From: Myxococcota bacterium
GTDB lineage: Bacteria > Myxococcota_A > Polyangia > Nannocystales > Nannocystaceae
Direction: 5' to 3'
Assembly: GCA_039028615.1 (NCBI GenBank)
Contig: JBCCHT010000028.1
Span: 32,001 to 96,000, forward strand
DNA length: 64,000 bases
Under the pieces are notes generated by a model that saw nothing but the letters and a program-made list of their open reading frames with translations, ran no database searches and had not been told where the DNA came from. The translations under genes and the position numbers were made by a program. Position 1 is the first letter of the stretch; every line of letters begins with the position of its first letter. Positions 27,262 to 37,612 of the stretch are shown here, piece by piece.

Positions 27262-27972
27262 GTGACCCCCATCGTCTATGCAGCGGCAGCGGGAGCCGCT
27301 CTCGGCGTTTCCCATCACCTCGGGCCTCAGTTCCTTCGCAAGCTGCAGGAGCGGAGGCTTCGCGACCTGTGCCGGGAGCAACGGTGCCTCGTCATCACCT
27401 ACGACGACGGCCCCACCCCGAGCCTCACCCCCGAGCTGCTCGCGGTGCTCGGTCGCCACGATGCGGTCGCCACCTTCTACATGCTCGGCAATCGGGTGGC
27501 GGAGCGTCGCGAGCTGTTCGAACGCATCCACGACGCAGGCCACGAGATCGGCTCGCACTCGTTCGAGCACCACAACGCGTGGAAGGTCTCGCCGTGGCGG
27601 GCCATCGAAGACCTGCGACGCGGTCACGCGGCACTTGCGCCCTGGCAAGGCGAAGGCGCGCTCTACCGTCCGCCCTTCGGCAAGCTCACGGTGCCGGCCT
27701 GGCTCGCCGTGAAGCGACAAGGCATGCGCCTCGGTTGGTGGACGCACGACAGCCGAGACAGCCACGGAACGCGGGTCGAGCCCGACGACCTGGCCCAGTC
27801 CATCGTCGACGATGGTGGCGGCGTGGTCCTCATGCACGACTTCGAAAAGCCGGGGCACACCGATTACGCAGTTGCAGCGACCGACGCGCTACTCGCGAGG
27901 GCCAAGGCGGAGGGAATCACCGTGCTCACCCAAGGGCAGTTGCTCGATCGTGAGCAAGGCCGAGGCACGTGA
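27262..27972 (+). CDS. Polysaccharide deacetylase (CE4/NodB)
   Basis: TYDDGP, ATFY, HEIGSHSFEH, YRPPFG, VLMHD; N-terminal hydrophobic anchor. Confidence 0.92.
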   Translation: MTPIVYAAAAGAALGVSHHLGPQFLRKLQERRLRDLCREQRCLVITYDDGPTPSLTPELLAVLGRHDAVATFYMLGNRVAERRELFERIHDAGHEIGSHSFEHHNAWKVSPWRAIEDLRRGHAALAPWQGEGALYRPPFGKLTVPAWLAVKRQGMRLGWWTHDSRDSHGTRVEPDDLAQSIVDDGGGVVLMHDFEKPGHTDYAVAATDALLARAKAEGITVLTQGQLLDREQGRGT

Positions 27973-28126
27973 AGATCCGGCTGCCACGGTAGCCACCACG
28001 ACTCACGCGGGGGCACGTCCAGACCCGCGCCACACCGCCTCCTGCACCTAGCCCACCCCCTTCCCCCGTGGTAGCGTGCACGCCCGCAGAAAGTGTCTGC
28101 GTGGCTACACGCAAGAGGCTCTCCGT

Positions 28127-29179
28127 ATGTCCGGGTCCCTTCGCCGCTACACCAAGCACCACGACGTCATCGGCCTGTGGCACGTGCCCAACATCAAGAT
28201 GCGGCACCCCGCGGTGGGAGCCAAGCCTTGGTACGTACGCATCAATTCCGACGGTCTGCGCGACGATCGCGACTTCCCGAAGGAAAAGCCGAAGGACAAG
28301 GTCCGCATCACGCTGCTCGGTGACTCGTTCACCTTCGGCCACAGCGTCGAGGTCCACGAGCGCTACAGCGCCAAGCTCGAGAAGCACTTCGGCGACATCG
28401 AGATTCTCAACTTCGGGCTCTGCTCGGCGGGTCTCGACCAGCACTGCCTGGTCTACGAGAACATCGCCCAGCAGTGGGAATCCGACATCTTGATGGTCAA
28501 CCCCTACCTGAACAACGTGGGTCGCTGCCAGCTGACCTACCACATGTTCCAGGGCCAACAGGGGCAGCGAAAGATGTCGGCCAAGCCCTACTTCGAGCTG
28601 CAGGGCGACGAACTCGTGCTGCGCAACGTGCCCGTGCTGCGGGAGCTCAGCACCGCCGACCAGGACCGGCTCAGCCAGGCGCAGAGCCAGCGCTCCGTCG
28701 GCCGCAACGTCGAGGCCGACCCGCAGCGCCGCGCCGTTCGCTACGCCAAGCAGCTCGTGCTCGAGCGCCAGCTCAAGTACCTGGCGATCAAGGCCTTCCC
28801 CATCCAGCCCTACCCCGAGTATCGCTCGAGCGACGCGCCCGAGTGGCGACTCGCCCGGGCCATCCTCCAGCGGCTGCGCGCCGCCTCCAAGCAAAAGGCC
28901 ATGGTCATCGCACCGATGCCGGCCTGGTCGTCCATCCTCAACCCCTCGCTCGCGACCTATCGCGAGCGTTATGCCGAGGTCCACGATCCCGCCAACGGGA
29001 TCCACGTACTCGACATCCTCCCTTACTTTCTCGAGCTGGGTTTCGCCGACCGGGTGCGCTGCATGGTGTCGACCCGCGATGCCCACTACTCGGACTTCGG
29101 CAACAGCGTCGCCGCACGCGGTGTCGCAGCCGAACTCGAGAAGACCGGGCTCCTGGACGCCGTGCGTTCCGGGGCCTGA
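28127..29179 (+). CDS. SGNH/GDSL hydrolase-fold protein, no evident signal peptide
   Basis: INSDGLRD, LGDSFTFG (nucleophile Ser), NFGLCSAG, DAHYS (DxH). Confidence 0.82.
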   Translation: MSGSLRRYTKHHDVIGLWHVPNIKMRHPAVGAKPWYVRINSDGLRDDRDFPKEKPKDKVRITLLGDSFTFGHSVEVHERYSAKLEKHFGDIEILNFGLCSAGLDQHCLVYENIAQQWESDILMVNPYLNNVGRCQLTYHMFQGQQGQRKMSAKPYFELQGDELVLRNVPVLRELSTADQDRLSQAQSQRSVGRNVEADPQRRAVRYAKQLVLERQLKYLAIKAFPIQPYPEYRSSDAPEWRLARAILQRLRAASKQKAMVIAPMPAWSSILNPSLATYRERYAEVHDPANGIHVLDILPYFLELGFADRVRCMVSTRDAHYSDFGNSVAARGVAAELEKTGLLDAVRSGA

Positions 29180-36200: not shown

Positions 36201-36502
36201 CACTGCAGCGCGGTCTGACCACCGAAGGACAGCGCGATCGCGTCGACATCCTCTTGGACGATGATCTTCTCGACCATCTCCGGGGTGACCGGCACGAGGT
36301 AGATGCGGTCGGCCAGCCCCTCGCTGGTCTGGATGGTGGCGATGTTCGGGTTCACCAGGACGGTGAAGACCCCCTCCTCCTTGAAGGCCTTGATCGCCTG
36401 CGAGCCCGAGTAGTCGAACTCACCGGCCTGGCCGATCTGGAGGGCGCCCGAGCCCAGGATGAGCACGCGCTTGGGTTTGCGAGGTAGATATGCGCCGTAC
36501 AT
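33275..36502 (-). CDS. carB: Carbamoyl-phosphate synthase large subunit
   Basis: [55 protein letters not shown], C-terminal MGS domain. Confidence 0.98.
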   Translation of the reverse strand: [1075 protein letters not shown]

Positions 36503-37612
36503 CTAGCGTTGCCCCCTCATCGCGCCCACCAGGCGCAGGTAGTCGTCGAACAAGTAGTCGGCGTCCTCGGGCCCGGGCCGCGCCTCGGGGTGGAACTGGA
36601 CGCTGAAGAAGGGCTTGGTCCGGTGACGGATGCCCTCGTTGGTGCCGTCGTTGATGTTCACGAACCAGGGCTCCCAGTCCTCGGGGAGCGAGTCGTTGTC
36701 GACCGCGTAGCCGTGGTTCTGGCTCGTGACGTAGCAGCGGCGAGTGAGCAGGTCCTGGACCGGCTGGTTCACGCTGCGGTGACCGTAGGGCAGCTTGAAG
36801 GTGCCGGCCCCCGCCGCGCGGGCGAGGATTTGGTTGCCGAGGCAGATGCCGAAGACCGGGCCGCGGAAGCTCTCGAGCAAGGTCCGCACCTGCTCGGCGA
36901 GTCCCTCGAGGTCCTCGGGGTTACCGGGGCCGTTGCCGATGAGCACGCCGTCGGCTCCGAGCGCGAGCTCGGCGAGTCGGGCGTGCCACGGCGCTCGGAT
37001 GACCGACACCCCGCGGTTGAGCAAGCTGCGGACGATGTTGTCCTTGCACCCGACGTCGACCACGAGGACGGTGAGCTCGCCGTCGCCGTAGCGCTGCACC
37101 TGCTCCGGCGCGACCAGGCGGAACACGTCCTTTTTCATGTCGACCGCGGCCGCTTCTTCGCGGGCGCGCTCGAAGGACATGTCGGCGGGGAAGAGCCAGC
37201 CGCGCATGGTGCCGTGCTCACGCAGGCGTCGCGTCAGCGTTCGCGTGTCGATGCCGGTGACGGCCGGCACGTTCTCGCTCGCCAGCCACTCGCTCAGCGA
37301 ACGGGTCGCCGCGTGGTGGCTGTAGGCGTCGACGTAGTTCTGCACCACGAGTCCTTGAACCTGGATCGCTCCCGATTCGTAGGGCCCATCGATGGAGCCC
37401 TTCTCGCGTGGTGCCGGCACGCCGTAGTTGCCGATCAGCGGGTAGGTGTGAACGAGGATCTGCCCTCGGTAAGACGGATCGGTCAGCGTCTCCACGTAAC
37501 CGGTCATACCGGTATTGAAGACGACCTCGCCGACCACGGTGCCGCGGCCACCAAACGCGTGGCCTTGCATCACCGTCCCGTCTTCCAATCTCAGCTGAAT
37601 GTCCGGGTTCAA
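36503..37612 (-). CDS. carA: Carbamoyl-phosphate synthase small subunit
   Basis: GEVVFNTGMTGY..LTDPSY.GQIL, GICLGNQ, TSQNHGYAV, SVQFHPEA; TTG start. Confidence 0.97.
   Translation of the reverse strand: MNPDIQLRLEDGTVMQGHAFGGRGTVVGEVVFNTGMTGYVETLTDPSYRGQILVHTYPLIGNYGVPAPREKGSIDGPYESGAIQVQGLVVQNYVDAYSHHAATRSLSEWLASENVPAVTGIDTRTLTRRLREHGTMRGWLFPADMSFERAREEAAAVDMKKDVFRLVAPEQVQRYGDGELTVLVVDVGCKDNIVRSLLNRGVSVIRAPWHARLAELALGADGVLIGNGPGNPEDLEGLAEQVRTLLESFRGPVFGICLGNQILARAAGAGTFKLPYGHRSVNQPVQDLLTRRCYVTSQNHGYAVDNDSLPEDWEPWFVNINDGTNEGIRHRTKPFFSVQFHPEARPGPEDADYLFDDYLRLVGAMRGQR

Follow-up and report, generated by a model that had tools for sequence, protein, structure and literature searches.

In a 64,000-nucleotide stretch of the 12.3-Mb genome of a Myxococcota bacterium (hereafter the window; contig JBCCHT010000028.1 of assembly GCA_039028615.1, C28:32001-96000), we found that three neighbouring genes, encoding a soluble SGNH-fold enzyme, a class III carbamoyltransferase (CT) and a protein of 128 amino acids (aa) with a tyrosine close to its C-terminus, form a unit. 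By sequence comparison this trio is a variant of the sxtIJKL-type gene block, a common block in which the roles of SxtJ, SxtK/DUF5989 and the adjoining SGNH protein have been open since its first description; the variant is soluble, fused and so far undescribed. The three proteins may act as a relay in which a carbamoyl group is carried on the tail tyrosine. A preliminary description of the same DNA, from which the relationship to the sxt block was missing, had read seven open reading frames (ORFs) as a carbamoyl-relay system acting on glycans: a CE4 deacetylase, the SGNH protein with its triad, the CT, the 128-aa ORF, a GT-C-like membrane protein and converging carB-carA. All seven were present at the positions and on the strands given there, with gene-like codon bias (G+C at third codon positions, GC3, 0.81-0.94), and the gene set was confirmed by ORF, Pfam and residue checks. 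The interpretation as a whole was borne out in part only, the unit comprising three of the seven ORFs.

Composition and recurrence of the three-gene unit

The core genes, all on the forward strand, are the following.

28127..29179, + strand: soluble SGNH-fold enzyme, 350 aa, with Ser67, Asn130, Asp318-x-His320, and Ser100 in block II
29218..31047, + strand: class III (NodU/CmcH/TobZ-type) CT, 609 aa, with PF02543 and PF16861
31016..31402, + strand: 128-aa soluble partner, residues ~19-69 resembling the SxtJ C-terminus and ~72-128 resembling DUF5989

In a neighbourhood survey, the order SGNH-CT-small protein recurred at 17 other loci, each with the catalytic Ser of the SGNH enzyme and a Tyr four residues from the end of the small protein (position -4); the co-occurrence of a CT, a Tyr-tailed protein and an intact SGNH in other genomes, put forward as a test in the preliminary description, was thereby upheld. 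Twelve of the 17 loci were found through the SGNH protein and not through the tail: ten in an SGNH-profile scan of the phylum, one (the only locus returned) in a scan of metagenome contigs, and one further. Counting the window's own genome, the trio was present in 5 of 151 relatives when single proteins were used as queries, in 12 of 301 phylum genomes with the SGNH profile, and in 13 of 401 with the small-protein profile, the last of which added two genomes that both held the full trio and a CE4 gene. A scan with the small-protein alignment gave two loci in genome contigs and no matches in metagenome or viral contigs. The range beyond the phylum rests on two source labels, Latescibacterota and Poribacteria.

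The gene for the 128-aa protein shares 32 nucleotides (nt) with the end of the CT gene, and its product terminates in ...DPSLYVMF. A direct search returned ten homologues of 61-99% identity (nine apart from the near-identical P0001). Among 1.84 billion representatives searched by profile, five clusters matched, four of them distant, and a sister family of small proteins was found downstream of related SGNH-CT pairs (profile match P 92%, E 6.7e-7). A joint alignment search recovered 62 family proteins, all of which had Tyr at -4 and Met at -2, a count that is partly circular because the tail itself helps the search. The non-circular count, taken from SGNH-found loci with a readable downstream region, gave Tyr at -4 in 12/12; the contig of L090, the eleventh locus of the phylum SGNH-profile set, ends inside its CT, and this locus stands outside the count. 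In two alignments, with 26 and 74 members whose identity fell as low as 8-14%, no residues other than Tyr125 and Met127 were invariant, and with 74/74 aligned sequences retaining it the tyrosine passed the conservation test that the preliminary description had set. In the window's own genome, Tyr at -4 was found at 155 of 9196 gene-like ORF ends (at least 100 aa), and the ending [ILVM]Yxx[FY]-stop in nine of the 9196, four of these nine being MBOATs. The DltX-like tail described earlier is retained in its Tyr at -4; the first Phe of FxYxxF is missing in the window, where the tail reads S-L-Y-V-M-F with Ser in its place.

Neither a membrane nor a signal segment was detected in the 128-aa protein (maximum 19-residue hydropathy 1.3), and none of the 62 family members had a hydrophobic segment above 1.6. 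Pfam, NCBIfam and the ESM Atlas gave no named match for it, and a fold search with its AlphaFold model gave generic helical matches alone (best Z 5.0), a result that proves neither a new fold nor its absence. We ruled out that the ORF is an artefact of the overlap with the CT, as it is conserved over its full length and the starts in the sister clade fall elsewhere in the CT end.

Tails of related form were also noted elsewhere in the genome. A 135-aa lipoprotein-like ORF with no Pfam match (L110:6096-6503, G000:C2) ends in ...EEFIYFQF, like the MBOATs of this genome, and lies directly after two membrane-protein genes; it may be an acyl shuttle that has become detached. The ending ...IVYENF occurs in two ORFs, one at L112:499-2874 (G000:C4; 792 aa, PF11617 repeat) and the other at a site on C32.

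The SGNH gene, judged by its homologues, starts at ATG 28127, giving 350 aa and not 367. Ser67, Asn130, Asp318 and His320 were retained in 30/30 homologues, in agreement with the intact Ser/Asp/His reported in the preliminary description, and the AlphaFold model (predicted local distance difference test, pLDDT, 88.6) had an SGNH fold. No signal or membrane segment was present (maximum 19-residue hydropathy 1.06), nor did any segment exceed 1.6 in the 15/15 SGNHs scored. The block II Gly is replaced by Ser100, with Ser in 19/19 close SGNHs, and a change of this Gly to Ser or Asn is tied to transferases in the accessible part of PMC12148441. An SGNH paralogue that is retained across the genus and has no CT neighbour (L002:8706-9893; L100, L101, L102, L103) carried Gly for the catalytic Ser in 5/5 copies and Arg for His in 3/5, and a sixth copy (G005) had an internal stop; the five losses of Ser, all in one genus, probably reflect one event.

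The CT matched PF02543 (E 7e-88) and PF16861 (E 4e-72), corresponding to a Kae1-like N-domain and a YrdC-like C-domain, and its solved relatives were NovN, GdmN and TobZ (E 3e-94 to 9e-81). His12, Tyr67, His125, His129, Asp148 and Asp332 were invariant in 15/15 CTs, and His12/His125/His129/Asp148/Asp332 align with GdmN H27/H133/H137/D156/D333. The window CT is thus like TobZ, GdmN, NovN and NodU in its two-domain build, catalytic His and metal ligands; unlike in the trio, a small molecule receives the group straight from those enzymes, and the accessible parts of the sources describe neither a small partner protein nor an SGNH for them. Membership in the class III family, which the preliminary description had labelled NodU, stands, while NodU proper (NF041651) does not, as the CT scored 162.9 bits against a cut-off of 1000. 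In one of the other trios, at L095:10514-12350, the CT is split over two frames.

A modelled complex of the CT and the 128-aa protein scored 0.89, compared with 0.04 for the best of three controls. A mark of this kind is reached by 116/157 solved complexes and 2/215 mismatched pairs, a calibration that is only roughly valid here because our own alignments were used. At least 76% of contacts were common to the runs, and the pLDDT of the partner was at least 71. Partner residues 17-113 are placed over CT residues 65-127, 168-176 and 221-238, an interface that takes in CT 69-89, which align to pocket helix 1 lining the acceptor pocket of GdmN. Recall of a like complex by the predictor is unlikely, because no solved fold resembles the 128-aa partner. 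The model supports binding of the partner on the acceptor-pocket face of the CT. Of the docking that the preliminary description had proposed, this run placed the body of the small protein on the CT and left the tail unplaced.

Relationship to the sxtIJKL-type block

The genome that holds the window also carries a canonical CT-SxtJ-DUF5989-membrane SGNH module (L001:9040-12951, G000:C40), in which the DUF5989 protein ends in ...AAAPFIYTLF. Using profiles built from 33 SxtJ and 55 DUF5989 proteins of related genomes, we found that the N-terminal half of the 128-aa family resembles SxtJ in its soluble C-terminal part (score 38.1, E 6.3e-6, P 85%; 30 column shuffles peaked at 18.0) and that the C-terminal half is remotely similar to DUF5989 over 57 columns ending at the final residue (E 0.002, score 22.2; shuffle maximum 16.2). 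An earlier profile of 11 sequences had already scored 25.1 with SxtJ, where none of 100 shuffles went above 20.0; its score against DUF5989 was 14.6, below the shuffle maximum of 20.2, and that match emerged only with 15 sequences. The 128-aa protein itself had neither a PF19588 (SxtJ) nor a PF19451 (DUF5989) Pfam match. On these profile comparisons, the protein is very probably a soluble SxtJ end fused to a DUF5989 peptide, with all membrane anchors lost. In the DUF5989 proteins, a C-terminal P-F-x-Y-x-x-F follows one membrane helix in 55/55 cases, and the homologues P0057 and that of L097 retain a hydrophobic helix and look intermediate. That DUF5989 corresponds to SxtK we infer from size and gene order.

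The phylogenetic reconstruction of the CTs pointed the same way. It comprised 63 CTs over 449 columns, rooted on two other CTs of the window's genome, with cyanobacterial SxtI outside the set; excluded were the split CT of L095 and 15 canonical loci in which the CT sequence was missing or too short. The 17 CTs of soluble modules formed one supported clade (0.995) nested among 44 canonical CTs, and because they nest in this way the trio derives from the sxtIJKL-type block as one offshoot without membrane parts. The two arrangements share their components, namely a CT of this clade, an SxtJ-like and a DUF5989-like part, and an SGNH. They differ in that the trio fuses the SxtJ and DUF5989 parts into one soluble protein and has its SGNH upstream, free of the membrane segments seen at the N-terminus of the canonical SGNH. 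The trio is accompanied by no other sxt gene, so nothing suggests saxitoxin. DUF5989 was found in 150 of the 251 phylum genomes searched. At the best DUF5989 loci (L015-L044), the peptide gene often stands directly after a CT, and an SxtJ match lay within ~1.5 kb in 4/30 (one query).

The accessible part of PMC2679770 lists sxtJ and sxtK as 'unknown', acting with SxtI, and proposes SxtL as a decarbamoylase by prediction; that of PMC2684587 gives sxtJ and sxtK as unknown or hypothetical, and the accessible text of a 2026 preprint (10.64898/2026.06.11.731795) still has the sxt genes hypothesised to act in conjunction. Genes like sxtJKL are also held by the suomilide cluster, according to the portion of PMC10157211 available. 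In the literature searched, which misses most subscription papers, no paper proposing a carbamoyl-Tyr relay was found and none named DUF5989. The membrane form of the block is hard to reconstitute; in the variant, three soluble proteins remain, each with a single residue open to testing (His12 of the CT, Tyr125 of the partner and Ser67 of the SGNH), so that mass spectrometry can address the question directly.

A possible carbamoyl-tyrosine relay and its alternatives

Class III CTs are established to form carbamoyl-AMP. The CT of the trio would do so from ATP and carbamoyl phosphate, the latter supplied by the housekeeping carAB. The complex model predicts that the 128-aa protein docks against the Kae1-like domain at its acceptor face, from which the free tail would present Tyr125 to His12 and become an aryl carbamate. 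By analogy with DltX/DltD and PatA/PatB, the tail would then hand the carbamoyl group to Ser67 of the SGNH enzyme. The SGNH would in turn deliver it, as the neighbouring genes suggest, to a sugar inside the cell, for example a nucleotide sugar, a glycolipid or a lipid-linked oligosaccharide, which in some cases a CE4 deacetylase would prepare; genes for the acceptor need not adjoin the trio. We put such a cytoplasmic carbamoyl-Tyr relay to a sugar at just short of an even chance. What speaks most strongly for it is that gene order, SGNH Ser and tail Tyr are kept together while the rest of the small protein has diverged to ~10% identity. The relay through a Tyr tail to the SGNH was the core of the preliminary description, and the conserved unit, the invariant Tyr, the DUF5989 homology and the modelled CT binding speak for it, while the tail is missing from the confident contacts of the model. 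The wider proposal that CTs of the SxtI clade are protein-tyrosine carbamoyltransferases, loading the C-terminal Tyr of a DUF5989/SxtK-type carrier for an acceptor-specific SGNH transferase, we hold tentatively and a shade less firmly.

The DltB/DltX/DltD and PatA/PatB systems resemble the trio in an invariant Tyr four residues from a C-terminus and in an SGNH with an intact triad, and in the accessible part of PMC12148441, which never uses the word carbamoyl, the Tyr of the FXYXXF motif is the acyl carrier in DltX and PatA. They differ from the trio in their donor, an MBOAT there and a soluble ATP-dependent CT here, in the group passed on, which here would be carbamoyl, and in having a membrane-anchored shuttle and an extracytoplasmic SGNH; the trio is cytoplasmic, and the first Phe of its tail is unconserved. 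No MBOAT was found among the window genes scanned with Pfam. The DltX-type topology that the preliminary description had drawn on is not supported, as the SGNH, the CT and the small protein are all free of membrane and signal segments. The trio is not a member of the MBOAT-SGNH family, and a shuttle-like mode of working is suggested by the analogy.

Several observations weigh against the relay. Its main weakness is that the Dlt and Pat relays are explained by membrane crossing, whereas the cytoplasmic trio crosses no membrane; in addition, a single hydrophobic helix preceded by a basic segment predicts that the canonical DUF5989 tail is outside the cell and hence separated from a cytoplasmic CT. 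Within the small-protein family (n = 62), position -6, Ser in the window, is Phe in 34, and the last residue is Phe in 28, Tyr in 33 and Cys in one. The AlphaFold model of the 128-aa protein has a pLDDT of 69.6 with low confidence in the tail region, and tail residues 114-128 lie outside the confident contacts of the complex model, which according to the tool is evidence neither way. Block II of the sister-clade SGNHs holds Gly in ten and Ala in one (n = 11). The closest solved fold to the window SGNH is CgnD (8A2N; Z 21.2, root-mean-square deviation 4.0, 246 residues aligned), a slow peptidase in the available part of PMC10070186, and SxtL is a proposed decarbamoylase in that of PMC2679770; the next match had Z 18.0, OatA 13.7 and PatB 12.8. 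Other trios of the window's own family have no adjoining glycan genes. Finally, the 39 kb of the crocagin-type locus of genome G638 contained neither a DUF5989 gene nor an ORF with a Tyr(-4) tail, and therefore such a CT can apparently work without one.

The textbook reading has SxtI acting 'in conjunction with' SxtJ/SxtK, and SxtL as a decarbamoylase. Carried over to the trio, it would make the small protein an accessory subunit that completes or gates the acceptor pocket of the CT, with Tyr as plug or keystone; the CT, like TobZ and GdmN, would transfer carbamoyl straight to its final substrate, and removal of a carbamoyl or acetyl group would fall to the SGNH. We regard this as rather unlikely. 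It agrees with the model, which buries residues 17-113 on the pocket-forming face and leaves the tail unplaced, and with the absence of a membrane to cross, and most close SGNH folds are esterases. The accessible parts of the literature add that a loop of the partner monomer completes the same acceptor pocket in GdmN (PMC9633730) and that SxtL may hydrolyse a carbamate, a role only predicted there (PMC2679770). Left unexplained are the invariant residues in a tail that matches the acyl-shuttle motif (55/55 DUF5989 proteins) and the retention of a removing enzyme beside an adding enzyme in 17/17 loci, with loss of its Ser when it stands alone. The small protein could instead be a substrate, as in the crocagin pathway, with the CT modifying its C-terminal residues and a CgnD-like SGNH releasing a carbamoylated short peptide, a reading that we find improbable. 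Besides being the top fold match, CgnD matched the SGNH profile (P 65%, E 6.2e-5, 104 columns); PDB sequence searches with the SGNH profiles returned weak matches only and did not recover it. The crocagin-type CT belongs to the same broad clade; in G638, the one genome of 251 with such a cluster, it is 47-61% identical to the CTs studied here (47% to that of the window), as against 35-39% to other CTs, the SGNH is related to that of the trio, and the precursor ends in Ile-Tyr-Trp. A ~52-aa SxtJ-like ORF with no Pfam match overlaps the CT start there (L130:1072-1266; SxtJ profile E 4e-11). The crocagin link cuts both ways: it associates SxtJ-like partners, SGNHs and peptide C-termini with this clade of CTs, and it also provides the tail-less case. 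What speaks against a peptide pathway is that the 128-aa protein has a folded CT-binding body and not a short basic leader, and that the neighbours of trios are glycan genes. The crocagin side has a short basic precursor ending in IYW, a dioxygenase, CgnB/E, methyltransferases and transporters; the ORFs surrounding the trio included no dioxygenase, short basic precursor or CgnB/E-like gene, CgnB/E not having been used as queries. Phenyl carbamates, moreover, are reactive as donors, and one would be a donor here, not a stable product. In the available part of PMC10070186, CgnI is the carbamoyltransferase, no SxtJ-like gene stands in the gene table, and CgnD is a slow peptidase (up to 96 h at 20 uM) with undetected substrate binding. 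The crocagin cluster is there the one with both CgnD and CgnI, and for the four glycosyltransferase-type clusters, Supplementary Table 5 lists neither a carbamoyltransferase nor a hydrolase that shares CgnD's closest homologue.

The assembly originally proposed, in which CE4, relay, window GT-C and adjacent carAB act jointly on a surface glycan, we consider highly improbable. The CE4, trio and GT-C genes are indeed co-oriented, a CE4 gene lies beside 8/17 other trios and a PMT_2 gene follows 2/17 (one genus), and the foreign-type carAB arrived separately from the native gene. Against this, homologues of the window CE4, GT-C, carA and carB are at 0/17 trio loci (some flanks short), carAB is the only carbamoyl-phosphate synthetase (CPS) of the genome, two further trio carriers in the family keep ordinary carB genes on other contigs, and a hairpin separates the trio from the GT-C gene.

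Hand-off from a carrier Tyr has so far been demonstrated for acyl groups only. If the relay is true, it would extend the tyrosine shuttle from MBOAT-driven acylation to ATP-driven carbamoylation, and its soluble form would show that the Tyr relay is a matter of chemistry and not of membrane transport alone. Acceptor specificity would shift from the CT to the SGNH, which would change genome-based prediction of carbamoylated glycans and natural products. The SxtJ, DUF5989 and SGNH partners, present in the majority of phylum genomes sampled, would gain a function, and SxtL and CgnD would be recast.

Neighbouring genes

The remaining features around the trio are listed below.

27262..27972, + strand: CE4 deacetylase, NodB-like, with PF01522 and intact motifs; optional neighbour
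31400..31470, + strand: intergenic hairpin after the trio (z -3.2; shuffle test)
31496..33205, + strand: GT-C/PMT-like membrane protein of a multi-copy Myxococcota family; probably not part of the unit
33275..36502, - strand: carB, the genome's only CPS large subunit; not part of the unit
36503..37612, - strand: carA, the genome's only CPS small subunit; not part of the unit

At the 17 other trio loci, no homologues of the window CE4, GT-C, carA, carB or fhs genes were found, the flanks being short in L014, L097 and L127. The window CE4 matched PF01522 (E 1.7e-27) and has TYDDG, HSFEH, RPPFG and LMHD, with motif 4 reading DSRDS, all of which we take to be catalytic or metal motifs of the family. 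CE4 genes of other subfamilies adjoin eight trios (L086, L087, L089, L091, L092, L093, L126 and L127) and none of the four loci closest to the window. The link to the relay drawn in the preliminary description thus survives as that of a frequent, optional neighbour, for which a functional connection is plausible. Genes for GT4, GT2, MBOAT, epimerase and PMT_2 proteins were often near trios, the MBOAT near 2/17.

The GT-C-like protein had no Pfam match and ~7 hydrophobic segments. Its structural neighbours in the ESM Atlas, with predicted models on both sides, were PMT/TMTC-like, with TM 0.59-0.63 to PMT-named clusters and TM 0.79 to a cluster with PMT_2 in 11%. Five paralogues lie elsewhere in the genome, and an orthologue in G005 (61% identity) had no module in the 12 kb fetched, of which the upstream part was 0.9 kb only; the PMT_2 gene that follows two trios is a different GT-C. 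With no homologue at the 17 loci and a hairpin between it and the trio, the gene probably lies outside the unit, and the downstream glycosylation step earlier assigned to it is not supported. A promoter and terminator scan gave nothing above chance and did not list the hairpin at 31400-31470; none of 200 shuffles folded as well, and the hairpin possibly marks a transcript boundary after the trio.

The carB and carA genes, on the minus strand, converge on the GT-C-like gene and form the sole CPS of the genome. Compared with the carB matches in 63 of 72 family genomes, the window carB has 40-52% identity, which marks it as a foreign type. At the native position (G000:C10:225491-227082, L111), where two congeners have carB flanked by a conserved upstream gene on one side and a gene resembling greA on the other, this genome has no more than a 189-nt gap. 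Because it is the only CPS, is of foreign type and accompanies an empty native site, we interpret carAB as a housekeeping, non-orthologous replacement. The dedicated carbamoyl-phosphate supply of the preliminary description is not supported, given the same facts and the lack of carA and carB in the fetched flanks of the 17 other trios. Adjacency of carAB to the trio may be chance; arrival together with the module is also possible. Between the converging ends of the GT-C and carB genes lies a strong hairpin (window:33222-33252, z -5.3), which the terminator scan listed as terminator-like on the minus strand. At a distance from the trio and unrelated to it, window:21317-25685 encodes in one run two DUF4178 zinc-ribbon proteins, two small ORFs and a membrane-fused spermidine synthase.

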